Source: a virus. From it: a DNA stretch of 64,000 nucleotides. The notes under the pieces were generated by a model. It searched no databases. It was not told the origin of the DNA and was given only the letters and a program-made list of their open reading frames with translations. Shown here piece after piece: positions 2,291 to 56,460 of this stretch (position 1 is its first letter; each line of letters opens with the position of its first letter). Made by a program: the position numbers and the translations under genes. The DNA lies in the IMG/VR virus record IMGVR_UViG_3300037423_000600, positions 32,001 through 96,000 of that record; one strand, written 5' to 3'.

Positions 2291-2691
2291 TTACAGTTAA
2301 CCCAAACGTATTGCTGGAAGTGGCGGAAGAGATTGAACAGGACGAGTATTACTCTGGTGCATCATGGTGGTTTCCAGAAAGACAGTGTGGCTGTGCCATG
2401 GTCCGGGTACTGTGCAAGACGACGGAGTTTGAAGCACGAGACAATACTTTCGGGTTTAGAGTCGAAGGATTTGCGGGCGGGCAATTTGTCATCGGCGGGG
2501 ATGTTGAACGTGCGGTAGCTTACGTAACAGGAGTACCCGATAAGATATGGGACAGCTTTAGAGGTTTCACCTTATACGCGGATAGATTCCAAACGGCAAG
2601 GGCTTTGAGAGAGATTGCCCAGACCGGGGAATTTACTTGGGACCCCAAAACCCGAGAAGAATATAATGCAAGATTTGAACTCAACTTGTGA
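2287..2691 (+). CDS. hypothetical protein, paralog 1 of a tandem pair (QCGCA motif)
   Basis: Similar to 2707..3120 (LLEVAxEIE...YSGAxWWxPxxQCGCA...DRFQTA/NRFETA). Confidence 0.8.
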   Translation: MITVNPNVLLEVAEEIEQDEYYSGASWWFPERQCGCAMVRVLCKTTEFEARDNTFGFRVEGFAGGQFVIGGDVERAVAYVTGVPDKIWDSFRGFTLYADRFQTARALREIAQTGEFTWDPKTREEYNARFELNL

Positions 2692-2706
2692 GGAGGGAAG
2701 CGAATA

Positions 2707-3120
2707 ATGATTATCGCGAATCGGGATATACTCTTAGAAGTGGCGGCGGAGATTGAAGCGTACGTGAACTACTCCGGAGCAGATTGGTGGTGTCCGGATA
2801 CCCAGTGTGGCTGTGCTATTGTCCGAACTCTCGGCAAGGTTACCGAATTAAAACAAAGTCCTCGGCATCAGCGTTCGGTGGTATTCGACATCAAAGATGA
2901 CGCGGGGCACCGCATAGTGGACCCCGTCTACGCTGTGGCTTTAGTGACAGGGCTATCCGATATAGTATGGAATGAGTTTTGTACCTTCTCCCTAGATGCA
3001 AATCGATTCGAGACGGCGGCGGCCCTGAGATATATACACCGTACCGGAGACTTTGATACCCACGAGTTCTGGAAAGAGTATAACCAGAACAATCCGGCGG
3101 GCGGGGAGGAGAACCAATGA
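2707..3120 (+). CDS. hypothetical protein, paralog 2 of a tandem pair
   Basis: RBS GAGGAGGG; homologous to 2287..2691. Confidence 0.8.
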   Translation: MIIANRDILLEVAAEIEAYVNYSGADWWCPDTQCGCAIVRTLGKVTELKQSPRHQRSVVFDIKDDAGHRIVDPVYAVALVTGLSDIVWNEFCTFSLDANRFETAAALRYIHRTGDFDTHEFWKEYNQNNPAGGEENQ

Positions 3121-3419
3121 GAACCTACTCCGTTATCCTTAAGAGTGGAGTCAGTCTACACGGACTGATTCCCTCCAACCGGACTAAATCTCTCGTCGGC
3201 TTGTGGATATGGGCCATGAAGAACCGCTACGGCGGGAAGTCCTCGGTGGTTTTAGACTTCCGGCAAACCAAGATCGCGGCGGAAGAGGTCGCTGTAATTA
3301 CCGAGGAAGGTATCGACGATACATACGACGAATTGGGCGGCGGGGACGATAACGAATGTCCCGATTGCGGTACCCGTACAGGACACCACCATAACGGATG
3401 CTCTCAGACCCTCGAGTAA
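3117..3419 (+). CDS. hypothetical protein with C-terminal CPDC..H..C zinc-finger-like motif
   Basis: ATGA overlap; CPDCGTRTGHHHNGC. Confidence 0.7.
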   Translation: MRTYSVILKSGVSLHGLIPSNRTKSLVGLWIWAMKNRYGGKSSVVLDFRQTKIAAEEVAVITEEGIDDTYDELGGGDDNECPDCGTRTGHHHNGCSQTLE

Positions 3420-3801
3420 CACGAAAGGTATTAAAAGATACCTTTTATTATATAAAAGCGGAAGTCTCCGGCTAAAACAGCTTGGGATTTCCGCTTTTTT
3501 CGTATCTACCCCAAAATAAGCCCCGAACTCGAAAAAAGCCTTATATATCAAGGGTTTTCGCCATTTCCACCGACCCACCCGGGCGGGCGGGAGGCGAAGC
3601 CGAAACCCTCAGTTCGGTTAACAGTAAGAAAGACACTGAATATAAGATAAACCCTTATAGAACAAGGACTTCCGCTCACCCACCCCGCCACACCTTTAGA
3701 CCTTTTAACTATTATAAGCATAGAAACCCTCCCTCTATGCATAGCGACACATGTATACAAGCCCCGATTTTTGTTCCCAACCGCCTCATTTGCTAATCAT
3801 T

Positions 3802-3936
3802 TTGCTAGCAAGGACCCAAGTTGCTAGCAGATTTGTTAACAAACGGGCTGTTAACATGCTTTAGTTGTTAACAAATGCCCTTGAAAGTTGTTAACAAGTC
3901 TGGTATTTTGTTAACAAGACACGAATTTGTTAACAA
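3802..3936. repeat. array of 8 palindromic boxes (TTGTTAACAA / TTGCTAGCAA type) overlapping a sigmaA-type promoter
   Basis: Boxes at 3802, 3821, 3833, 3848, 3865, 3888, 3908, 3927; TTGAAA-N17-TATTTT at 3881-3909. Confidence 0.85.
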
Positions 3937-6022: not shown

Positions 6023-6181
6023 CGGCAGGCGGGGCTTCGGCTCCGCTTTTGCTTTACCCTAAACGGCAAGAGTAAGTAACGAACTCGCCCCAAGTTGTTT
6101 ACTCAAGTTGTCGGGCGGGGTCTATAATATAACTATAAGGGGTTCGGGACTCCTTAAACTTATTATTTTGGAGGAATGGAA

Positions 6182-6457
6182 ATGGATAACATGGAGGAAA
6201 CATTGGGATTGGTACTCACTTATTTTAAATCACTTCAATCTATCTTGGAATTGGCGGAAGGTAAAAAGGATTGGGAATTGGTCCAAACGGTTAGGGCTTC
6301 CTTGGAGGATATGGAGGTTGACTTGGGTTGGGATTACGGGGAATCGGATAAAACAGGCATCCAACAATGGCAAGGCGGAATGGACCGGGCGGAAGGGAAT
6401 TTCGGACATATTACGGAAATTCAAAACTTATCTCAAAAATTAAAGGCCGGGGAATAA
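6182..6457 (+). CDS. small acidic early protein; coding strand has only one lone G
   Basis: Promoter TATAAT ~6123, RBS GGAGG, terminator 6446-6476. Confidence 0.8.
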   Translation: MDNMEETLGLVLTYFKSLQSILELAEGKKDWELVQTVRASLEDMEVDLGWDYGESDKTGIQQWQGGMDRAEGNFGHITEIQNLSQKLKAGE

Positions 6458-6604
6458 TCCCGGTCTTTTTCTTTTCCTTCTATTATATAAGACACGACCT
6501 CGCCGGGCGGGGACAGGATTCTACAAATTACACAAGCCTTTAGGGCTATGGTATTATTTAAACATGGGCAGGGAACCCATAAACAACACATTGGAGGTAT
6601 TACG

Positions 6605-6877
6605 ATGCAGGGAACTATGGACAAATTGATTGAGGACCAACGCGAGTATGGAAAGGGTCTTATGACACGGGAGGAAAAATTGAGTCCCAATCCGATTCAA
6701 ACTAAATACAACGGGCGGAAGGTTTGGGTGGACGGCTACGGCTGGGGAACCATCAAAGGCGGATATCTTAACGACAGGCATCATATTTTCATCTTCTCGG
6801 CTTTTCATATCCACTTCGCTTCAGGTATCAAAACTACCATCTACGCCGCAAACATTCGGAAAATGGCTCGGGCTTAA
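6605..6877 (+). CDS. hypothetical protein
   Basis: Promoter TGGTATTAT ~6549, RBS GGAGG. Confidence 0.7.
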   Translation: MQGTMDKLIEDQREYGKGLMTREEKLSPNPIQTKYNGRKVWVDGYGWGTIKGGYLNDRHHIFIFSAFHIHFASGIKTTIYAANIRKMARA

Positions 6878-7048: not shown

Positions 7049-7394
7049 GGGCTTTTTTCTTACACCGAACCAAGTAATTTTCACGACACCTTTCCATAGA
7101 TTATACGCTCGGGGTATATTATAACTATCCCGGGAGGGCTTTACCAAAGGCTCTTATCGGGAACCTCCAATACATCGGCCCGGCAGGGATTCCCGACATT
7201 AACCGATTCGCGGTTACTGTACCCGCCGGGCCACAATTTTGTGCCAAATTCATAGACATCTAGTATCCCTCCCTTGCCCTCCGATTTTTGTATCCCCCAG
7301 AAGAAGCCCTAGTAGCTATACATGCCTCGTTCTCAAAAGATTTCACGAATGTAAAACTTTACAAGACTAAAGGATTCAAACCGTAAAACCTATA

Positions 7395-7424
7395 TTATAC
7401 CATAAAACAGGCCCTTCGGTCAAG
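7395..7424 (-). promoter_or_regulatory. leftward sigmaA-type promoter
   Basis: Minus strand reads TTGACC-N18-TATAAT with extended -10 TG. Confidence 0.65.
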
Positions 7425-7587
7425 GAGTCTAGGCAATAAATTTTTTCTTTCACGGACAGGCAAGGCAATAAAAAACATTATTCAAAAAGGACTTCTCAAA
7501 AACCCTTATAAGGCATATAATAGGTAATAGGTAAGGCGGGCCGGGCGGGAATCCACCCCTTACACTAACCTATTGGAGGGAATACAA

Positions 7588-8430
7588 ATGGCAAAAACAA
7601 ACGGCAAGGCAAACGGCGGGAAAAAGGTAACACCAAAAAAGGTAACACCAAAAAAGGTAACACTCCCGGAGGCTCTCAAATTACCGGAAACGGCGGGCCC
7701 GGAGGCAAACGGGGAATACTTCTACTTAACGGATACGGAGGCAAAAACGGCGGGCGGGACGGCTTTAGGCACACCGGAGGACTTGGCTAAGGCTATCCAA
7801 CAAACGGAGGAGGAAAAGGAAAAGGCTATCAAATTTATTTACGGGCCGGGCGGCCAAACATGGTCCATTCTTCCAATCCTCTTGGACCGGAAGGTTAATC
7901 CTTTCTTGGATACCCACTTCCCCATTACGGCCGGGCGGGTAACACAACAAACACTGGAGGAATGGAAAAAGGCTAACGGCACCATTACCATCATACCTAT
8001 CCAAGGCGGGGAATGGACATTTTACACGGTGGCAATACTTCCGGCCAAACAAACCACAATCAAACCTTGGGAATTAAAATGGGGACGGGAAACAGGCAAT
8101 TTCCTTCAATACACGGAATACAAGGAGGCGGAAAAAGGCATCATGGTAACACCCCAACAATACCTCATTACTAACATTACAACTAACCGGGGAAAGGCTA
8201 TCAATCAGGCTAAGGCATTGGGTAAGGTATTCAAATTGGATACCTCCACGGTGGAGGATAAGGCTAAGGTAACTTACACCATCACACCGGAAGGAAAAAT
8301 CCTACAGGCTAACAAAAATAACGGATTGGACAAAAAGGAATATAACTCTATCTCGGATATTATCGGACGGCAGGCAACCAAACATTATACATGGAATAAC
8401 TTGGTCAAGGCTTATACAGGCCGGGCTTAA
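7588..8430 (+). CDS. early protein of unknown function (280 aa); coding strand has no lone G
   Basis: Promoter TATAAT ~7516, RBS GGAGGG, KKVTP tandem repeat at N-terminus, terminator 8433-8470. Confidence 0.85.
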   Translation: MAKTNGKANGGKKVTPKKVTPKKVTLPEALKLPETAGPEANGEYFYLTDTEAKTAGGTALGTPEDLAKAIQQTEEEKEKAIKFIYGPGGQTWSILPILLDRKVNPFLDTHFPITAGRVTQQTLEEWKKANGTITIIPIQGGEWTFYTVAILPAKQTTIKPWELKWGRETGNFLQYTEYKEAEKGIMVTPQQYLITNITTNRGKAINQAKALGKVFKLDTSTVEDKAKVTYTITPEGKILQANKNNGLDKKEYNSISDIIGRQATKHYTWNNLVKAYTGRA

Positions 8431-8432
8431 TC

Positions 8433-8470
8433 CAAAAAAAGGAAATTCTCTTCGGGGAATTTCCTTTTTT
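8433..8470 (+). terminator. intrinsic terminator, possibly bidirectional
   Basis: AAAAAAGGAAATTCTC-TTCG-GGGAATTTCCTTTTTT. Confidence 0.8.
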
Positions 8471-8667
8471 CTATTTCCACCCACCCACCTTCAAATTTTT
8501 GGAAATTCTACCCGTGCAAGTATATACTCATATGCGAAAAGGATATTCACGAAACCCTCGCTTCTGACACTTCCAGACCTTGTAAAACAATGGACGAGCT
8601 GGGGCGGAGGGGCTATAATTATAAGTGATATAACTCTTATATGAGGCGCAAGGGGAGGGCAACCACC

Positions 8668-10431
8668 ATGACTATAGAACTGGATGAATCAAAACGTAAG
8701 AAGCCCAAACGAGTATCTACCAAGCTCAAGCATAACAAAAGGGAACTGCGAGAGAAGCAGGGAACCACTCAAGATGAGGGAACTGCTTTAGACCAAAGGG
8801 AACGTGACTTAAATGAGATAGCTGACGAGAGGGCTAGGGAACTGGCGGAATCCGTAAAGGCCAAGACGACCTCTTTAGCCAAACGGGATGAACAGCTATC
8901 CGATTTGGTCGAGAAGATACTGTTGTACTGTGAAACCCAAGCGGACACGAAGTTACACGAATACCAAAAGGTATTTGCGCGGCGCGTCATCGAGTGTTTG
9001 GTGACGAATAGCGGGGATGAACTCACGGCCCTATTTTCTCGTCAGTCGGGTAAGACGGAGACGCTCGGGGTGGTGATTCCGGGGTGTATGGTATTACTGC
9101 CTCTGCTGGCGAAGATGATTCCGGATATGTACGAATTGAAGATGTATGCTAAAGGGTTCTGGGTGGGGATTTTTGCTCCTTCTAATGAGCAGGCGTATAC
9201 GGCGTTTACGCGGGTGCGGGAGAAAATACGGCACGGGAATGCGAAGGCGATTATGAATGACCCGGAGATTGATACGGATTTTGAGAATGAGAAAGGGAAC
9301 CCGATGCTGTTGACGAATGGGTCGTTGTGTCGGATGCAGTCGGCGGCGAAGCAATCCCAGATTGAGTCGAAGTCCTATCACATGGTACTGATTGACGAAT
9401 GTCAGGATGTCGATAATACGAAAATCAAGAAATCGATTCACCCGATGTTGGCGGCGTATAACGGACTCATTATTAAAATCGGGACCTCGAATACGAAGAA
9501 GTCGGACTTCTATGATGCGATACGGCGGAATATCCGGCAGGAGCAGAATTACGGGGCGAAGCAGAATCACTTCCAATATGACTATAAGACGGTGCAGAAA
9601 TACAATCCAAAATATAAGGCTTACATAGAGAAAGAGATTACGCGGCTTGGGTTTGATTCGGACGAATTTCGGATGGCGTATCGGCTCCACTTCATTCTGG
9701 ACCGGGGGATGTTTATTACGCAGGAGGATTTTGATGATATCCTAGTCTCTCCGGTGTTGAAGCACAAGACCGAGGAAATGTCGATGCCGTGTGCGGTCGG
9801 GATTGACGTAGCGAAGAGTGGGGACTCAACGGTGGTGACGGTTTTAGGGGTCGATTGGAGCAACAAGTATAAGAATGAGGAAACCGGGGAAGAAATCCCG
9901 ATGAAGTATGTGCTGAACTGGCTGGAGTTACAGGATGAGAAGCACGAGGCGCAGTTCTGGCAAATTGTGGATTTCCTTAAAAACTATAACGTCCATACGA
10001 TCTTCGTAGATTCGACGGGGATGGGGGACCCGGTGGCGGACCGTTTTGCGCATTACTATTCCGGTCAGTGTCACGTCGAAGGGTACCAGTTTACCCGGCC
10101 GTCGAAATCGACCATGTGGAAGTCGTTGAAACAGGAGATTGACGGGAACCGCCTAAAGGTGCCGGGCCATCCCCGGGCGCAACGGTTACGGCCCTTTATG
10201 AAATTCCGGTCGCAAATGCTCGACTTGGAGAAGGATTACGTGGGGCAATACATGGTCTGTCAGCATCCGGATGTCAAAGGGGCACACGATGACTATTGCG
10301 ACTCTTTAGGGCTGGCGAATTTGGCGGCGATGTCGAACTTTATGCCGGAAGTCGAGGAACATGACAGTCCATTTTATCCGCATAGCCGGACCTCGGTGGA
10401 GGAAAAACTGTTCGGGCGACGGAGGGCGTAG
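8668..10431 (+). CDS. terL: terminase large subunit
   Basis: Walker A SRQSGKT, Walker B VLIDE, nuclease motifs GIDVA, VDSTGMG and HDDYCDS. Confidence 0.93.
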   Translation: MTIELDESKRKKPKRVSTKLKHNKRELREKQGTTQDEGTALDQRERDLNEIADERARELAESVKAKTTSLAKRDEQLSDLVEKILLYCETQADTKLHEYQKVFARRVIECLVTNSGDELTALFSRQSGKTETLGVVIPGCMVLLPLLAKMIPDMYELKMYAKGFWVGIFAPSNEQAYTAFTRVREKIRHGNAKAIMNDPEIDTDFENEKGNPMLLTNGSLCRMQSAAKQSQIESKSYHMVLIDECQDVDNTKIKKSIHPMLAAYNGLIIKIGTSNTKKSDFYDAIRRNIRQEQNYGAKQNHFQYDYKTVQKYNPKYKAYIEKEITRLGFDSDEFRMAYRLHFILDRGMFITQEDFDDILVSPVLKHKTEEMSMPCAVGIDVAKSGDSTVVTVLGVDWSNKYKNEETGEEIPMKYVLNWLELQDEKHEAQFWQIVDFLKNYNVHTIFVDSTGMGDPVADRFAHYYSGQCHVEGYQFTRPSKSTMWKSLKQEIDGNRLKVPGHPRAQRLRPFMKFRSQMLDLEKDYVGQYMVCQHPDVKGAHDDYCDSLGLANLAAMSNFMPEVEEHDSPFYPHSRTSVEEKLFGRRRA

Positions 10432-12589: not shown

Positions 12590-14110
12590 ATGGCAGACCC
12601 GTATGTATCAGGGCTGAATGTCACCGAGACTACGGCTGTTTCAGGAAACCCCTACTCTCTCCAAATGGGTATCTCGTCCGAAGAACTAAAGCGCGTCAAT
12701 CGGGAACTTCTTTACTGGAAGTTTTACAAGGGCATTCAATGGTCGTATAAACGGCCGGAGGGTGAACCGCAAAACACCATCAACTATTCCGCCCGCTTTG
12801 TGGACAAGGGTGTGGCTTTCCTTGCGGGGAAAGGCTTCACCATTAATGTTGAGAAAGGCGCGGAGGAAATTGTAAAGAAGCCTTTAGACGAAGTTTGGGA
12901 TGATAACCAGCGCGAATTGCTGTTCCTTGAAGCGGCTCAGGCCGGAGGGGTATCCGGAAATTCGTGGGTGAAGATTGTTGTCGAAGAGTACGATGAGGGT
13001 AAGCAACCTGTGATGGCAGACTTATACCCAAACGGACGAGTTCGGCTTTTACTTCTGCCCGGCCATGCATGTTTCCCAGAGTGGGACCCCCACGATAAGG
13101 ACCGTCTGGTAAAAATGAAAATCATCTATCCGATTGAGGTTAAGGACCTGAACGGCCGGATGGTGACGCATTGGTTCCGAGAAGAAATCGACGCGGATGA
13201 GATTGTTCAGTTCCTTGATGACGAAGAAGTGGAACGGCGGCCGAATGACCTTAAGGAAATCCCGGTAGTCCGAATCAAGAACTTGGTTCTGGCTAACGAG
13301 TCTTTAGGGAAATCGGACCTTCATGACATCCTTCCTTTGCAGAAGGAGTTTAATGAAAAAACGACTGACGTTTCGGACATCATCAACTACCATGCCGCAC
13401 CAATTACGCTGATTTTCGGCGCAAAGTCGAACAATCTGTCGAAAGGCGCGAATAAGGTATGGGGCGGGCTTCCTAAAGACGCGAAGGTCGAAAACTTGGA
13501 ACTGAAATCGGACTTGGCTTCTTCGATGAACTACATTGACCTGATTAAGAAGGCCCTGTTTGAAATCGGTAATATGCCACACGATGCTTTCGGTTCGGAG
13601 ACGAACGTTTCCAATACCTCCGGCGTGGCCCTTCATATTAAGAACCAACCCCTGATGGACATTACGAACATGAAACGTAAGACCTATGGGGAAGGGATTG
13701 AGCAGATTAACCGGATTATCATTCGGTACTTGTATCTGTATGGCCTCAACGGATTCGACAAGGCGAAATTCGATGCCTTAACTCCCCGGCAACGATGGGT
13801 GTACAGCACAGACTTCCCGAACCCGCTTCCGAAAGACGAGCTTATCCAGATGCAACTTATCGCTCAGAAGATTACTCTCCAACTCATGACTCGGATTGAT
13901 GCACTCAAGGAATTGGGTGAACATGATGCGGTTACGAAGCTGGACGAGATTAAGAAGGAATTTATCGAGTGGCAGGATATGATGTTCGCTACGGCGGCGA
14001 AGTACGAAACCAACTCGAATGGAAATTCCACGCTTAAGCCGAAGCCTGCGGGTAAAACCAACGTGGGCGGCATAGTCCCGAAGTTTGAACAGGCAAACGG
14101 AGGCGCGTAA
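12590..14110 (+). CDS. portal protein (SPP1 gp6-like)
   Basis: 506 aa after terL; INY..FVDK..AFLAG, GKSDL, SNTSGVAL, FPNPLPKD motifs. Confidence 0.9.
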   Translation: MADPYVSGLNVTETTAVSGNPYSLQMGISSEELKRVNRELLYWKFYKGIQWSYKRPEGEPQNTINYSARFVDKGVAFLAGKGFTINVEKGAEEIVKKPLDEVWDDNQRELLFLEAAQAGGVSGNSWVKIVVEEYDEGKQPVMADLYPNGRVRLLLLPGHACFPEWDPHDKDRLVKMKIIYPIEVKDLNGRMVTHWFREEIDADEIVQFLDDEEVERRPNDLKEIPVVRIKNLVLANESLGKSDLHDILPLQKEFNEKTTDVSDIINYHAAPITLIFGAKSNNLSKGANKVWGGLPKDAKVENLELKSDLASSMNYIDLIKKALFEIGNMPHDAFGSETNVSNTSGVALHIKNQPLMDITNMKRKTYGEGIEQINRIIIRYLYLYGLNGFDKAKFDALTPRQRWVYSTDFPNPLPKDELIQMQLIAQKITLQLMTRIDALKELGEHDAVTKLDEIKKEFIEWQDMMFATAAKYETNSNGNSTLKPKPAGKTNVGGIVPKFEQANGGA

Positions 14111-14111
14111 G

Positions 14112-14864
14112 ATGGACAACCCTATGGCCCATTACATCCGGCAAGTAGTCTCGGCTTACATGAAGCTTCTTTCACAGTACGGGGACAGGGCGATTTTACC
14201 GCTAAAGAATGTGGAGCGGGTGACGGCCTTTAATACAGGATTCCTCACCGTGCATTACACGAAGTTGGCTAAGGAATTGGGTGACAAAACCCGGTCGTTT
14301 ATCGTTGAGGCGGTGGATGAAGTCATTCAGGCAACCATCAACCACTACAACGAACTCCACCGGAAGGCGGGGTATGAGCCTTTAGACGGAAAAGCCAAGG
14401 ACAAGCTTTGGGGTAGAATCCGAAAAGATTTTCTCCTTGCAAAGTTCAAAAGGCGGACGCTGGATGCGCGGGTGGACAATGCAACTATCCGGTTAATGGC
14501 AAATATCCTTCCCATCATTCAAACCTACGCCACGGCCTCGACAGACCACGACAGGGCTATTGCTACCATGGTGGATTACTTCACAGGAACCCACCCCATC
14601 CCGGGCGGGACGGCGGCAAGGTGGAACGGAAGGCTCTTAACTTCCGAACTCTTTAGGGCCTACCAATTCACGGCCAAACAAGTGCTGATGGAGTTAAAAG
14701 TCCCTAAGGTGAAATGGGTAAATACAGACCGACACACAGAAGAAAACATTACTGATGAATACGCCGCAACTACATACACCCCCAGACAACTCCCGCGTTA
14801 CCCATACCCTTGCAATGATTCATTCTTTGTACCCATTTATAAGGAGGAACTGGACAATGCTTAA
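14112..14864 (+). CDS. putative minor head / head morphogenesis protein
   Basis: Position between portal and scaffold; C-terminal P.YPYPC motif. Confidence 0.55.
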   Translation: MDNPMAHYIRQVVSAYMKLLSQYGDRAILPLKNVERVTAFNTGFLTVHYTKLAKELGDKTRSFIVEAVDEVIQATINHYNELHRKAGYEPLDGKAKDKLWGRIRKDFLLAKFKRRTLDARVDNATIRLMANILPIIQTYATASTDHDRAIATMVDYFTGTHPIPGGTAARWNGRLLTSELFRAYQFTAKQVLMELKVPKVKWVNTDRHTEENITDEYAATTYTPRQLPRYPYPCNDSFFVPIYKEELDNA

Positions 14865-19269: not shown

Positions 19270-19590
19270 ATGATGCTGTTCTTTTACAATAGGTGCATTA
19301 ACCAGCCTATCGAACTTGACTTTGGGCCGGAGAGTGTTCGTATTGAGCCCCTTCAATCCAAGATAGTGCCCGGGCATCCTGCGATGCTGGAGCACCCATC
19401 TGTGGTGGCTCACGTGAATGCAGGCAACTTGATTGCAAGTATTTACGAGTCTCCTACGGCCCCAAGTGTCGAGCCGGGAGTTATTGACGAGCCCGAAGCG
19501 GTAGTGACTGAGGCGGTTACCGAACCTGCGGCGGCCCCTTTAGAACAACCTGCTCCGGAGATTAAGGTTAAGGCTTCCCGGCGGAGATAA
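19270..19590 (+). CDS. hypothetical protein
   Basis: RBS GGGAGGG. Confidence 0.65.
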   Translation: MMLFFYNRCINQPIELDFGPESVRIEPLQSKIVPGHPAMLEHPSVVAHVNAGNLIASIYESPTAPSVEPGVIDEPEAVVTEAVTEPAAAPLEQPAPEIKVKASRRR

Positions 19591-19616
19591 TTTTATTCTG
19601 ATAAGGAGGGATTCAA

Positions 19617-21107
19617 ATGGCTGATTACTTACGCCCTGATGTTTTCGTAGAGGAGAAGAACTCCGGCCCCCGCCCGATTCAAGGGGTAGGAACCTCTACT
19701 GCGGCTTTTGTCGCACTTTCCCCTCGTGGAAAAATCGGCGTACCTCAACTGGTTACGTCTTGGACTGATTACGTAAATGCGGTTTCCTACGGTTTGGATA
19801 CGCCTTTCTTGGCGAACTCCTACGGAGCGTATGCCGTTTACGGCTTCTTCAATAACGGCGGTACCCGCGCCTATATTGTCCGTCCCGGCGACGGCTCCCA
19901 AGTTAAAGCCCAGTACACCTACACGGACGGCCAAGCAACTCCGGCGGACATCGTGAAGGTGGAAGCCTTGGATGAAGGCATATGGGGTAATAAGCTGTCC
20001 TCGCGTTTTGTAAATGGTCTAGCGGCTGGCAACTACGATTTTATCGTAAAGTTTGACGGTACGACTGTGGCAACGTACAAGGAAGTGTCCTTTGATGCTA
20101 CGCAGGATAACTTCATCGAGACGGCTGTTAATGGAACGGATAAGTTCGTATCCATTGACGTTCTGGGCTCCACCACTCCAACGCTTGTTGCGGGGGACAT
20201 CGGGGTGGATAAGAACCTCTCCGGCGGTGCGGACGGTTCCTCCGGCATTGATTCTGACGACCTTCTGGGTACTTCGGGCCTTGCGGCTTTAGATACAGTG
20301 GACAACATCAACATTGTTGTTATCCCTGAATCCCAAGCGGCCGCTACCATCACCGGAGCTTATGCTTGGTGTGAGAAGCGTAAGGATGCCTTCTTCGTCT
20401 GTGACGGAGCCCTTACCGATACAGTGGCTTCTATCCAAACGCTTCGTGCTTCCCTTGGTTCCAAGGATGCGTCTCTGTACTACCCTTGGATTGAAGTATC
20501 TGACCCTATCGGCAAAGGTACGGCTAAAACCAAGTTCGTTCCGGTGGCAGGTCACGTAGCTGGCGTTTACGCCCGCACGGACGGAACTCGCGGTGTTTAC
20601 AAGGCTCCGGCGGGTATCGACGCAACGGTACGCGGAGCTCTTAGCACGAAGGTTACTGTTCAGGATGGGGAACGGGACGTATTGAACCCTAAAGGTATCA
20701 ACGTCATCCGTGTACTCTCCGGTGCAGGTATCGTCGTGTGGGGCGCACGTACTCTGGGTGCAGACCCGAAAGACCGCTACGTCAACGTTCGCCGGGGCCT
20801 GAAGAAAATCATCAAGTCCTTGGCGGAAGGCTCTCAATGGGCGGTGTTCGAGCCAAACAATACCGACACATGGCGGCAAATGCGGGTTCAAGCGAACTCC
20901 TTCCTTTTAGGCGAGTTTAAGGTAGGTGCCTTCAAAGGCGATACCCCGGCACAAGCCTTCTTCGTGAAGTGTGACGCCGAACTCAATACGCAGGAAGAAG
21001 TCGATGCTGGCCGCATCAATGAGGAAGTCGGCGTGGCTTTCAACAAGCCGGGCGAGTTCATCATCATTCGTATCGGCCAATGGGACGGCGGAGTGAGCGT
21101 AAGCTAG
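19617..21107 (+). CDS. contractile tail sheath protein
   Basis: YLRPDVFVEE, AVYGFFNNGG, YYPW, KAPAG, VWGARTL, WAVFEPN, KPGEFI motifs. Confidence 0.95.
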   Translation: MADYLRPDVFVEEKNSGPRPIQGVGTSTAAFVALSPRGKIGVPQLVTSWTDYVNAVSYGLDTPFLANSYGAYAVYGFFNNGGTRAYIVRPGDGSQVKAQYTYTDGQATPADIVKVEALDEGIWGNKLSSRFVNGLAAGNYDFIVKFDGTTVATYKEVSFDATQDNFIETAVNGTDKFVSIDVLGSTTPTLVAGDIGVDKNLSGGADGSSGIDSDDLLGTSGLAALDTVDNINIVVIPESQAAATITGAYAWCEKRKDAFFVCDGALTDTVASIQTLRASLGSKDASLYYPWIEVSDPIGKGTAKTKFVPVAGHVAGVYARTDGTRGVYKAPAGIDATVRGALSTKVTVQDGERDVLNPKGINVIRVLSGAGIVVWGARTLGADPKDRYVNVRRGLKKIIKSLAEGSQWAVFEPNNTDTWRQMRVQANSFLLGEFKVGAFKGDTPAQAFFVKCDAELNTQEEVDAGRINEEVGVAFNKPGEFIIIRIGQWDGGVSVS

Positions 21108-31584: not shown

Positions 31585-32654
31585 TGGCGACGACAATCCT
31601 GAATCTAAAGGGAGAGGCTACGCTTCTCCCCCGTGTTATTAAGCTGTCATGGAAGAATCCGACCGACCCGGCTTTTGTGGAAGTGGCGGTTCATCGTCGG
31701 ATGGATGACTTCCAAGTGGACCCGCTGAACCCTTTTGGGGTGGAGGTTTACCGGGGGACGGCCACGGAAATCTATGACTATCATTTGTCTCTTCCGGCCA
31801 AAACAAAACTAACAGACGTTCCGGATGTCTATGATATAATCAAGTTAGGTAATGGAAACGAATCTCAATTTCTCCAAGGCGAATCTCTTTATTATTACAC
31901 GGTGTTTGCCGTCGATAGTGAGGGGAATTATTCGGCCAACCAAGCCACGATGACGGTTGTAAAGCCCATCAAGGAATACTTTATGGGCCAATTTATGTAC
32001 GATAGCCTGCCGGAAATTTACCGGATTGAGGATACCCTCGGAGATACGAAACGGTTTATGGAACTCCTCGGCTATATGGCGGATTATATCTTCTCGCAGA
32101 CACACATGATAACCGACCTCATTGACGTTGACCGTTGCTCCGCCGACCAGCTTCCTTATATCGCAGAAGGGATTGGGTGGCAACTGGACAAGACCCTCCC
32201 GGTTACACTCCAAAGACAATCCCTTAAATTCGCGGTACGGAGTTATCGGATGGCCGGGACTAAAGGCGGACTCGACAGGCTGGTGAAATACTACTCCGGC
32301 TTTCCACAGTCCTCTGGCGTAATCGAAACCTTTGCCTTTGACTTCTATACGGTCAGCTTCGGCACCCTACCCGAATCCTCCCCGAGATACACAACAAACA
32401 CGACACCAGACTTTGCCGACGAATCGATTGACTTCGACCATCCTAAGTCGGTTGACGACCCTATTCGGTACACTCCGGACTTTAGCTACTTGGCCGGGAC
32501 AGGTACCACAGACTCCAAGTTTTTCGTTTATATTCAGCCGACATATACGCTGACGGAGCAGGAAAAAACCCAAATCGAGGCGCGGGTGCGGCGGATTGTG
32601 GACCAATTCAAGCCTATTCGGGTGGACTATCAAATAGATTTCTATGATGTGTAA
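31584..32654 (+). CDS. baseplate wedge / tail protein I-like
   Basis: LPEIYR, LPYIA..IGW, GTKGGL motifs. Confidence 0.8.
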   Translation: MATTILNLKGEATLLPRVIKLSWKNPTDPAFVEVAVHRRMDDFQVDPLNPFGVEVYRGTATEIYDYHLSLPAKTKLTDVPDVYDIIKLGNGNESQFLQGESLYYYTVFAVDSEGNYSANQATMTVVKPIKEYFMGQFMYDSLPEIYRIEDTLGDTKRFMELLGYMADYIFSQTHMITDLIDVDRCSADQLPYIAEGIGWQLDKTLPVTLQRQSLKFAVRSYRMAGTKGGLDRLVKYYSGFPQSSGVIETFAFDFYTVSFGTLPESSPRYTTNTTPDFADESIDFDHPKSVDDPIRYTPDFSYLAGTGTTDSKFFVYIQPTYTLTEQEKTQIEARVRRIVDQFKPIRVDYQIDFYDV

Positions 32655-54841: not shown

Positions 54842-55654
54842 ATGACACGTAGAACACGGACCAAAAGTATGAAGTATGGCATTTACGCTCAACCACCCAA
54901 ACATCTAAGGGACCTCGAACCTGATGATGAAGGTTGGAAAGAGGCGTGGGGTGAGGAGTACACCGAATCGTATAAGCTAACAGAGGTCTACTTGGAGCAA
55001 ATCGAATGCAACCGGGAAAGCTATGGCGGCCAACCTATTGAACGGGCTCACTTTCGTCCGGACCCGCGCCGTATGGTCGGCGGCGGAGCGTGGATTATGG
55101 TTACGAATCCGCCCCCTACGAACCCCACTCCCGTAGCCTTTGGTATGTATTGGGCGGTACCCTGTAAAGAAAGTTTGAACTATGATGGATACGATAAGTA
55201 CGGCCGCTATAAGGTGGAAATCCTGATGAAGGACCCGGAGGCGGAAGGTCAGTTTCATGCGGTAGGGTTATTCGTAACCGAATACATGGTGGTCCATGAG
55301 GGGATGTTCCGCGAGTTCATGGAGGAAGGCTACTTTGACCTCCAGCAGTTATCCCTCACTACCGAGGACTCAATGAACGTAGAACTCATTGAACGCGGAA
55401 GGGCTTTAGTCGAAGAGGAACGGGAGTCCATCTGGGCCTTGATGCTAGACGGCTTAACGGAAAGTAAAGCTTGTGAGGAATACTTCTTGGGCCGTCACGT
55501 TGAACGGGATAATGCCCAAATCTGGTACCGCCCTATTCCCGAGTTTGCCGAGTATATGGAGGATACCTTTGGTCGTTTGATTCGTAATCAGGGCAGAGGC
55601 TTTACCGAAGAAAATCATCAGCGCAGAGCGCAAAGAAGGGCGGAGCGGGCATGA
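54842..55654 (+). CDS. hypothetical protein
   Basis: RBS AAGGAG, 270 aa. Confidence 0.75.
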   Translation: MTRRTRTKSMKYGIYAQPPKHLRDLEPDDEGWKEAWGEEYTESYKLTEVYLEQIECNRESYGGQPIERAHFRPDPRRMVGGGAWIMVTNPPPTNPTPVAFGMYWAVPCKESLNYDGYDKYGRYKVEILMKDPEAEGQFHAVGLFVTEYMVVHEGMFREFMEEGYFDLQQLSLTTEDSMNVELIERGRALVEEERESIWALMLDGLTESKACEEYFLGRHVERDNAQIWYRPIPEFAEYMEDTFGRLIRNQGRGFTEENHQRRAQRRAERA

Positions 55655-56460
55655 CCAGTATCAACAAGATTGACGAAGAACAATTATTGAAAGCGGTTCG
55701 CCAAATCGCCGGGAACAAGTCCTTTAAGGTGGGGGATGAAGTCACTGGACTCGTCACCGGGATTGAGGACTACGGGGTATTCTTGGAGAACTACGAAACT
55801 CGAATGAACGGTCTTATCCACAAGCGCAATGTATCCAAGACCCGGTTTTACCACGGTATCGAGGACCTTGAGTCCAGCTTTAAAATCGGGGATACCGTGA
55901 CGGCTAAAGTCGTTGAGATTCGGGACGGCAAACTTTCCCTTTGTACTTTCGATTATGAACTTCCGTCTTACGGCATCAACTCGTTAGGTTCGCTTATCAA
56001 GAAGGAAGATATCAAAGTCACCGAGAAGCCTTCGGAATTAGATGAAATTTATGAAGAAATGCGCGGCAAGGTCGGCGGGGTGAGTGCGGTGGCAAAGCCC
56101 CGGGTGGCGGAACTTGTTGGCAAGTACGGATTGGTGAAGTTCTCCATGGCTTTAGCCAAGGCATTAGAAACTTATACCCCCATAGACCAAAGCGTATTGC
56201 TTGTAGAAGAGATTGAAAAACACGCCGGAGTCAACTCACCGAAGCGTACTTTTATCATTGGCTCTCACGTCCGCCAGCGGTGGCAGGAACGCGGAGACGG
56301 CGGGGACCTGCTGGATAGACTCGTTAAGGCCCGCTTGATGTTCGAGGACCTGCATTTGAAACGCCGCCTGTATGGTGACGATGAATACACCTACCCGTGT
56401 GCTATCGGGGAAACCGGGGAAAATCACGTTAAAACCGTAGAACCTTGGGGCCAATACTAA
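55651..56460 (+). CDS. S1 RNA-binding domain protein
   Basis: KVGD.VTG.VTGIEDYGVFL...GLIH...FKIGD.V.AKV....GKLSL. Confidence 0.85.
   Translation: MTSINKIDEEQLLKAVRQIAGNKSFKVGDEVTGLVTGIEDYGVFLENYETRMNGLIHKRNVSKTRFYHGIEDLESSFKIGDTVTAKVVEIRDGKLSLCTFDYELPSYGINSLGSLIKKEDIKVTEKPSELDEIYEEMRGKVGGVSAVAKPRVAELVGKYGLVKFSMALAKALETYTPIDQSVLLVEEIEKHAGVNSPKRTFIIGSHVRQRWQERGDGGDLLDRLVKARLMFEDLHLKRRLYGDDEYTYPCAIGETGENHVKTVEPWGQY

Follow-up and report, generated by a model that had tools for sequence, protein, structure and literature searches.

A lone-G-free transcription unit upstream of terL

The stretch of DNA analysed here, referred to as the window, comprises 64,000 nucleotides (nt) of the virus record IMGVR_UViG_3300037423_000600 (positions 32,001 to 96,000 of that record); its source genome, which we call G000, is a circularly closed virus record of 105,101 bp. 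Directly upstream of the terminase gene terL, the window carries a gene for a 280-amino-acid (280-aa) orphan protein, and the transcription unit around this gene (unit 1) contains no isolated guanine on its plus strand. We define a lone G as a G-run of length one, that is, the centre of an HGH trinucleotide (nine of the 64), and counts refer to the plus strand. Between positions 7428 and 8513, the 244 G are distributed over 109 runs (88 doublets, 16 triplets, and 5 quadruplets) with no singleton among them, and the nearest lone Gs stand at 7427 and 8514. Lone A (116), lone C (139), and lone T (93) all occur within the block. The first-pass annotation had reported a block with these limits and about 110 runs by hand count, which proved exact on recounting. 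Given a window-wide singleton fraction of 0.60 among G-runs, 0 of 109 corresponds to a binomial P of ~4e-44; the nine HGH trinucleotides were observed 0 times against ~117 expected, while GGH and HGG are normal or enriched, so that the excluded trinucleotides are HGH alone. The unit is also A-rich (35% A; AAA observed 74 times versus 26 expected).

Over the whole of G000, unit 1 is the longest lone-G-free gap (1087). The next two gaps (210 and 171) jointly make up a second cassette (unit 2), and all others are at most 88. No gap of similar size was found for lone C, A, or T on either strand of the genome. Across 175 crude open reading frames (ORFs) of G000, the lone-G fraction is 0.63 ± 0.11 and falls below 0.35 in only two genes (0.00 and 0.05); the property is therefore binary within the genome.

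The elements of both units are listed in Table 1. Unit 1 begins with an AT-rich upstream part, and past the T-tract of its terminator a single GG run precedes the lone G at 8514; 210 nt separate the 280-aa gene from terL. For unit 2, the predicted layout is a 5' hairpin behind an ordinary promoter, then the ORF for the 93-aa acidic protein, and finally a terminator. To judge from these predicted promoters and terminators, which each unit has for itself, both are insulated, moron-like cassettes. No family match was found for the 93-aa protein in Pfam or PHROG, and an Rfam search of the window gave no match.

Table 1. Positions of the two cassettes, their predicted elements, and the downstream neighbour (window coordinates unless a contig is named).
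Feature	Position	Strand	Basis
Unit 2, second cassette; 43 G-runs, 1 singleton at 6320 (TGA context)	6111..6490	+	Run count, P ~5e-16
Gene for small acidic helical protein, 93 aa; likelier start ATG at 6182	6176..6457	+	ORF
Predicted unit 2 terminator; the next G (6491) is lone	6442..6478	+	Consensus/sequence
Unit 1, complete lone-G-free block (upstream region, promoter, leader, gene, terminator)	7428..8513	+	Run count
Predicted sigma-A-like promoter, TTCTCA-17 nt-TATAAT	7493..7521	+	Consensus scan, consensus match only
Predicted 5'-terminal leader hairpin, -14.8 kcal/mol	7528..7567	+	RNA fold
Ribosome-binding site GGAGGG, 3' of the leader hairpin	7574-7579	+	Sequence
Gene for 280-aa orphan protein	7588..8430	+	ORF
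Predicted intrinsic terminator, hairpin and T-tract; an upstream A-tract gives it a bidirectional look	8440..8471	+	Sequence reading
Element AAACC[CA]TCGCTTCT or variant	8552-8567; L001 4394; L008 4516, 4559; L009 (reverse complement) 963, 994		
TerL, downstream neighbour; ordinary G usage (40.8 lone G per 100 codons)	8641..10431	+	Pfam Terminase_6N/6C

Conservation of the rule in the 280-aa family

A search of 5.8 billion proteins with the 280-aa protein returned three homologs, and 19 credible family members emerged when 1.84 billion representatives were searched with a profile; none was found among 50,697 cultured phage records. By means of degenerate pattern scans we obtained the DNA of three relatives, here called L001, L008, and L009, while further pattern scans of metagenomes and genomes for more loci yielded nothing or chance matches. 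In L001, which lies on the 36.9-kb IMG/VR contig G001 and encodes a protein 43% identical to that of the window, a block of 1262 nt holds 139 G-runs, none of them lone, and extends from the promoter through the gene and an additional 62-aa ORF to the terminator. L008 (39% GC; protein ~26% identical) has a block of 1234 nt with 83 runs and a second block with 51 runs, both free of lone G. In L009, where the gene is cut at the contig end, 2 of the 63 runs over ~800 nt are lone. The protein is 26 to 44% identical among the four phages, versus 63 to 81% for TerL, and its gene is placed directly upstream of terL in all four. The promoter core CATATAATAGGTA of unit 1 is kept in L001 and L008, where similar 5' hairpins are predicted by RNA folding for the unit 1 leaders, as they are for the unit 2 leader of the window. 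L008 and L001 also encode small proteins (129 and 62 aa, respectively) within their lone-G-free blocks; neither shows detectable homology to the 93-aa protein.

The rule leaves a footprint that can be read in the protein: no Cys, Met only before G, A, V, D, or E, and no [FYHNDIC][AVDE] dipeptide. Violations number 0 to 1, where 10 to 15 are expected, in 16 of the 19 family representatives; the remaining three (P0015, P0018, and P0019) are encoded normally. The rule is therefore old, maintained by selection, and capable of being lost. Whether homologs carry an ordinary lone-G content had been put forward in the first-pass annotation as the check on its claim, and the answer favours the claim both in the DNA of three contigs, in spite of the low protein identity, and in the footprint of most representatives. 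To judge from these two lines of sequence comparison, lone Gs are almost all eliminated by purifying selection, and this has happened in at least 16 diverged lineages of the family. An assembly or sequencing artefact is ruled out by the four independent metagenome contigs and by protein footprints from Logan, ENA, and JGI clusters.

We also observed that the TerL match in L009 (reverse complement) is split into two parts, 1189-1428 and 2534-3910, lying ~1.1 kb apart, which suggests an intron, an intein, or an inserted homing element.

Depth of recoding and properties of the 280-aa protein

The minimum number of lone Gs with which a given protein can be encoded was calculated by dynamic programming over synonymous codons. 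Ordinary G000 proteins have a floor of 9.8 ± 2.5 lone G per 100 codons (range, 4.1 to 16.1), whereas the floor of the 280-aa protein is 0 and its gene has 0. When the codons of this gene were resampled from genome usage, 81 ± 6.5 lone G resulted, with a minimum of 59 in 2000 trials. Since ordinary genes cannot reach zero by synonymous changes, the amino acid sequence of the 280-aa protein has itself been shaped by the rule, together with its codon choice. The protein consequences predicted at first reading hold: it contains no Cys, and every Arg is encoded by CGG. Taken as a whole, the two cassettes are rewritten at the level of codon choice, codon junctions, amino acids, untranslated regions (UTRs), and terminator, with G on the sense strand or mRNA in runs of at least 2.

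An AlphaFold (AF2) model built on the 19-sequence alignment predicts a confident alpha/beta core for residues 90 to 280 (mostly pLDDT >90) and a disordered, low-complexity N terminus rich in K, G, A, and T for residues 1 to 85; the disordered tail is basic or acidic. The protein has no match in Pfam, PHROG, or a PDB profile search. With the structural model, Foldseek against pdb and BFVD returned none, ESM Atlas nothing useful, and VIA-align over 48,161 chains a best Z of 3.0. The adjacency to terL in four phages raises the question of a TerS, yet no TerS appeared among the Foldseek and VIA-align matches or the profile matches. Within the disordered N terminus, three tandem 15-bp units (window 7621-7665) encode (KKVTP)3, and homologs carry other low-complexity N-terminal repeats, e.g., GKA/GKV in L001.

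Strand, boundaries, and exceptions

The ban concerns the sense strand only. On the plus strand of unit 1 the lone-C fraction is 0.74, equal to background, and the template strand thus carries lone G in normal amounts. None of the five complete units examined keeps to the rule beyond its terminator: a singleton already appears at the first, second, or third G-run past it, as the background would give. At the 5' side the two units differ. In unit 2 (window and L008), the onset falls inside the promoter spacer, with lone Gs immediately 5' of it in the window; in unit 1 (window and L001), the rule reaches 60 to 100 nt 5' of the -10 element (10 G-runs, chance ~1e-4). About 20 non-coding G-runs comply, and the rule spans UTRs and codon junctions. 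It therefore acts at the nucleic acid level, and a translation-level cause is ruled out on the same grounds.

Four exceptions were found within units, and all of them are HGA (TGA, AGA, CGA, and AGA), hence HGA may be the least harmful context. This tolerance is the opposite of the GA preference described for RNase Y and for DpdA enzymes of the type found in phage CAjan, both of which are considered below. Three of the four exceptions are predicted by RNA folding to be mostly base-paired. Since the ban is otherwise absolute, each lone G would be individually harmful, in the manner of a cleavage or lesion site. Furthermore, AGA is banned although its complement contains no G, so the constant element is the G of the sense strand or RNA, or else the C of the template strand. 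Having 0 lone among 109, 139, and 83 runs in three phages at 26 to 44% protein identity requires a specific and strong activity that distinguishes isolated from adjacent G on one strand.

These results support the core claim of the first-pass annotation, that something acts on HGH of the coding strand or mRNA and that the unit has been selected to lack it. Its preferred model fared differently: hypermodified virion DNA that impedes RNA polymerase cannot be what the unit avoids, since the template strand is full of lone G. The same observation rules out the need to keep the duplex unmodified for protein binding or for a pac site. A cytosine modification acting on lone C of the template was rejected, as no C-modifying enzyme was seen among the ~70 G000 proteins scanned (see below). 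Nor is the proposal of a first-expressed gene supported, since the promoter core TATAATAGGT also precedes ordinary genes elsewhere; an effect of promoter class is unsupported for the same reason, the core being identical. The candidate process that remains is one that sees the sense strand alone, either as mRNA or as non-template DNA in the transcription bubble.

Partly purged genes and non-coding elements near the cassettes

A 109-aa gene lying between the two cassettes (window 6548-6877; homolog at L001 2299-2595) is partly purged, with 13.8 lone G per 100 codons versus 33.7 ± 4.8 in others. In L001, a 96-aa gene (1458-1748) is partly purged as well, 9 of its 52 runs being lone. Both genes may represent an intermediate state under the same pressure.

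The ~330 nt preceding unit 1 (window 7100-7427) contain no credible ORF, and Rfam returned nothing over them. They include a ~30-nt block, GAATGTAAAACTTTAC.AGACTAAAGGA (window core 7347-7375), which recurs near-identically at L008 3050 despite a TerL identity of 63%. In L008, three copies of AATGTCAAC (3094, 3160, and 3188) stand directly 5' of the unit 1 promoter, and L001 has one copy (2981); these copies have an operator-like look, contain lone Gs, and mark the onset of the rule. On the other side, past the terminator of unit 1 and ahead of the terL promoter, all four phages carry the conserved non-coding element AAACC[CA]TCGCTTCT (as the variant TAGCTTCTAT, twice, in L009), which could be a packaging or late-regulation site.

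Genome context and the 7-deazaguanine and sugar module

G000 is related to Bacillus cereus phage BCD7 (TerL 41% identical) and encodes Pol A, RecA, ribonucleotide reductase (RNR), DnaB, primase, ligase, a YyaC-like DUF1256 protein, and an FtsK/SpoIIIE protein; its host is probably a spore-forming member of the Bacillota. In the Pfam and PHROG scans, which covered ~70 G000 proteins, Pfam identified preQ0 genes, namely, GTP_cyclohydroI (1.7e-61; FolE), Radical_SAM (1.4e-14; QueE), QueC (1.1e-16), and PTPS (1.5e-34; QueD). QueD is encoded elsewhere, while the other three belong to a cluster comprising a QueE-type radical SAM protein, FolE, an SNase-like nuclease, a HAD phosphatase, a cupin, QueC, the glycosyltransferase GT9, a 359-aa ORF that resembles a second GT9 paralog, a CDA-fold deaminase, and DpdA. 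The DpdA matches phrog_887 (3.4e-46) and is 29% identical to the CAjan DpdA (tblastn, E 1e-11); Pfam TGT (PF01702) gave no match to it. On the basis of gene content, G000 carries the genes of a phage 7-deazaguanine DNA modification system, and the hint at 7-deazaguanine chemistry that the first-pass annotation drew from queD is thereby verified and extended to FolE, QueD, QueE, QueC, DpdA, and GT9.

Contig G001, which bears the lone-G-free island of L001, shares with G000 the module of HAD phosphatase, cupin, two GT9 proteins, and deaminase, and the DpdA proteins of the two, at 93% identity, are the best-conserved ORF in the compared span. BCD7 has the preQ0 pathway and a 31%-identical DpdA and is without the sugar module and without a 280-aa family gene; it is also without an island, its longest coding-strand lone-G-free gap being 76, and has no purged dinucleotide. 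A weak genome-wide form of the rule was rejected: rho(GG) is 1.25 to 1.30 versus 1.01 in BCD7, yet all homodinucleotides are raised, and the effect is too weak. The GT9 gene of G000 has no match in the 50,697 phage records.

Among the ~70 scanned proteins, we saw no cytosine- or thymine-hypermodifying enzyme, no phage RNA polymerase, and no obvious RNase toxin. The candidates for an enzyme acting on HGH are only DpdA, GT9, the SNase-like nuclease, and an S1-domain protein, and we know of no HGH specificity in any of them. The SNase-like nuclease (113 aa; G000 19571-19912, L060 3571-3912) is encoded between FolE and the HAD phosphatase in G000 and is not found in G001. In the S1-domain protein (269 aa; window 55651-56460), the only recognisable domain is the S1 RNA-binding domain at its N terminus; it is one of the few RNA-directed candidates. 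Another protein of G000 (318 aa; G000 13624-14580, L059 13624-14580) matches phrog_24884, 'thymidylate synthase' (1.5e-117), has no Pfam match, and was not found by tblastn in G001 or BCD7; a divergent enzyme of pyrimidine modification is one possibility.

G000, as well as G001, also avoids restriction sites: in G000, GATC occurs 19 times versus 411 expected, GCCGGC 0 versus 46, GAATTC 0 versus 27, TGGCCA 0 versus 24, and ACCGGT 0 versus 20. BCD7 avoids different sites (GGCC 0 versus 21 and CGCG 7 versus 108 expected). When G-containing palindromes of G000 were grouped by context, the observed/expected ratios were 0.56 for GA, 0.66 for GY, and 0.52 for GG; no class is exempt, and the palindrome test is therefore uninformative as to which G contexts are protected.

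What the cassettes may be escaping

Tentatively, we propose that the cassettes avoid presenting substrate guanines to the phage's own chemistry of DpdA plus glycosylation, acting on mRNA or on the non-template strand. In the mechanism we envisage, a guanine-directed activity in the infected cell would act on single-stranded sense nucleic acid (mRNA or non-template DNA opened by transcription), would be unable to use a G adjacent to another G, and would spoil expression by a single hit. The likeliest agent would be the DpdA-type guanine transglycosylase of the phage together with its glycosylation module; cassettes offering no substrate to the phage's own base exchange could then give their full product yield while the remaining genome is hypermodified. 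Read more broadly, the pattern might reflect a new enzyme specificity, one that senses the G neighbour of a G on the single-stranded sense strand in infected Bacillota, with a protein family rewritten in a "no lone G" alphabet to escape it; this is a possibility we raise with the same reserve. A new DpdA-plus-glycosyltransferase system that works co-transcriptionally or is directed at RNA is conceivable as one version of such a specificity, and we hold it just as provisionally.

In favour of this proposal, the island occurs together with the 93%-identical DpdA and the sugar module in both G000 and G001, and BCD7 has neither island nor module. Published phage DpdAs read contexts of 2 to 3 nt, GA and GGC in CAjan and GA in iggy (PMC7544227, PMC10484667), and DarT1, a bulky G-modifier, cannot modify both Gs of an adjacent pair (PMC11543638), which sets a precedent for the steric weight of G neighbours. 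Several points weigh against the proposal. HGH as a DpdA context is purely inferred, and the known motifs GA and GGC differ from it. A DNA-level purpose, that of keeping a region unmodified, is contradicted by the normal lone-G content of the other strand. We know of no harm done by 7-deazaguanine adducts on the non-template strand or mRNA, and Q-type bases are tolerated in decoding, so that modification of RNA need not block translation. In G000, palindromes with lone G, such as GATC and GAATTC, are avoided as strongly as those of the GG type, which gives no sign of special protection for lone Gs. The link between island and sugar module is a comparison of two related phages with one distant relative. 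Lastly, the extension of the rule 5' of the unit 1 -10 element in two phages would oblige an RNA-only version to assume an unseen upstream start.

The mRNA immunity set out as the second model of the first-pass annotation is still live as the main rival, though in our estimate an unlikely one; as we read it, the message would withstand a G-specific enzyme that targets RNA, has no relation to DpdA, and needs non-G flanks. The agent might, with no greater likelihood, be a host defence toxin or a shut-off RNase or ADP-ribosyltransferase of the phage, in which case the cassette mRNAs would be natural equivalents of ACA-less messages. Such a model accounts for a ban that is sense-only and matches the transcription unit at the 3' end and, for unit 2, at the 5' end. 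The stable predicted 5' hairpins of all leaders and the strong terminators look built for stability, the three base-paired exceptions are in keeping with it, and the loss of the rule in the lineages of P0015, P0018, and P0019 is what would be expected if the agent is specific to a host or context. Its weakness is the enzyme: the scanned G000 proteins offer only the SNase-like nuclease, which is not in G001, and the S1-domain protein, and to our knowledge no nuclease or transferase requires non-G on both sides of a G without any other base preference. Nor does this model account for the 5' reach of the rule in unit 1.

It is very unlikely that the cassettes are instead purged of sites for RNase Y, the housekeeping decay endonuclease that preferentially cuts after G in Firmicutes, so as to yield a very stable mRNA. 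In B. subtilis, the sites cut by this enzyme are weakly biased towards G|A, with U at -2/-3, and typically contain a lone G; 63% of the sites are without GA and the G at -1 is dispensable (bioRxiv 10.1101/2023.03.12.532304). This preference, along with the predicted 5' stabiliser hairpins, fits a design for stability, but a weak motif cannot yield an absolute ban on nine HGH trinucleotides including CGC. Moreover, RNase Y would be favoured by the A-rich, unstructured character of the units (z = -0.75), in which 48 GGA steps are kept; all four exceptions are in HGA, the very context that RNase Y likes best.

We give very little credence to a structural element in which G clusters on the non-template strand would serve R-loops, G-quadruplexes, or A-form DNA, as an origin or as a packaging signal by terL. 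Every G is indeed clustered on that strand and the unit adjoins the terminase gene, next to which pac sites are often found. Yet G3-type quadruplex motifs number 0, and those of the G2 type equal token shuffles (11 versus 9.6 ± 2.0; 18 versus 14.8; 4 versus 3.9), which weakly refutes the idea. A propensity model needs no complete absence of lone G, unit 2 and the extra L001 ORF comply elsewhere, and L008 has only 16% G.

Equally improbable, and explaining less, is targeted, transcription-coupled hypermutation that destroys lone G (e.g., G to A) in the cassettes, for it would suit the A-richness and the strand-specific, transcription-unit-bounded pattern, but intact ORFs with conserved motifs persist in 19 lineages, no reverse transcriptase or gene resembling a diversity-generating retroelement was seen among the scanned proteins, rule-breaking homologs exist, and the process would be difficult to distinguish from selection except in population data.

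Implications and comparison with known systems

In these cassettes a constraint at the nucleic acid level has overridden protein evolution over a long time. Should the proposal be true, they would form a new class, one whose recoding serves to evade the DNA-modification chemistry of the phage itself. Identifying the agent would bring one of two things to light. It could be a new glycosylated 7-deazaguanine system, whose sequence context and reach, by strand or into RNA, would then be known; or it could be a nuclease or transferase, likewise new, that is directed at G and takes part in the conflict between phage and host. Purged cassettes are a footprint visible in sequence alone, from which one could predict what context an unknown modification or defence enzyme recognises and which genes a phage most needs expressed. 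The rule also provides an experimental handle, as lone Gs can be added by synonymous recoding.

Among known systems, the DpdA systems of phages such as CAjan and iggy resemble that of G000 in combining preQ0 genes with a DpdA homolog. The published DpdAs read short asymmetric G contexts and none has an HGH context; the predicted system of G000 adds a GT9 glycosyltransferase module. DarT1 offers a parallel in phage defence, that of a G-specific and single-stranded-DNA-specific bulky ADP-ribosylation in which adjacent GG is not doubly modified (PMC11543638). It differs in that one G of a GG pair is still modified, so that GG is not immune, and in having no known consensus motif; no DarT was identified in G000.

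The closest parallel at the level of the message is that of ACA-less mRNAs immune to MazF, which share with the cassettes the removal of a nuclease target from the sense strand only, such that one message survives. In the cassettes, unlike in ACA-less mRNAs, the target is set by the non-G flanks of a G and not by a fixed word, and the ban covers some DNA 5' of the promoter. While MazF is the nuclease cognate to ACA, we know of none cognate to lone-G-free cassettes.

A search of the full-text literature, including that on DpdA, found no description of lone-G-free or motif-free cassettes. Avoidance of restriction sites and target motifs is the wider phenomenon to which they can be compared, since it too is a depletion of short words kept by selection, and G000 shows the classic kind in its GATC sites. 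In contrast to classic avoidance, the cassette ban concerns a degenerate class of words (9/64 trinucleotides), is strand-specific and absolute, is confined to two cassettes, and reshapes the protein. Target avoidance is thus already known as a strategy, and what is new here is a G-adjacency rule that is strand-specific, confined to cassettes, able to reshape a protein, and conserved throughout a family.

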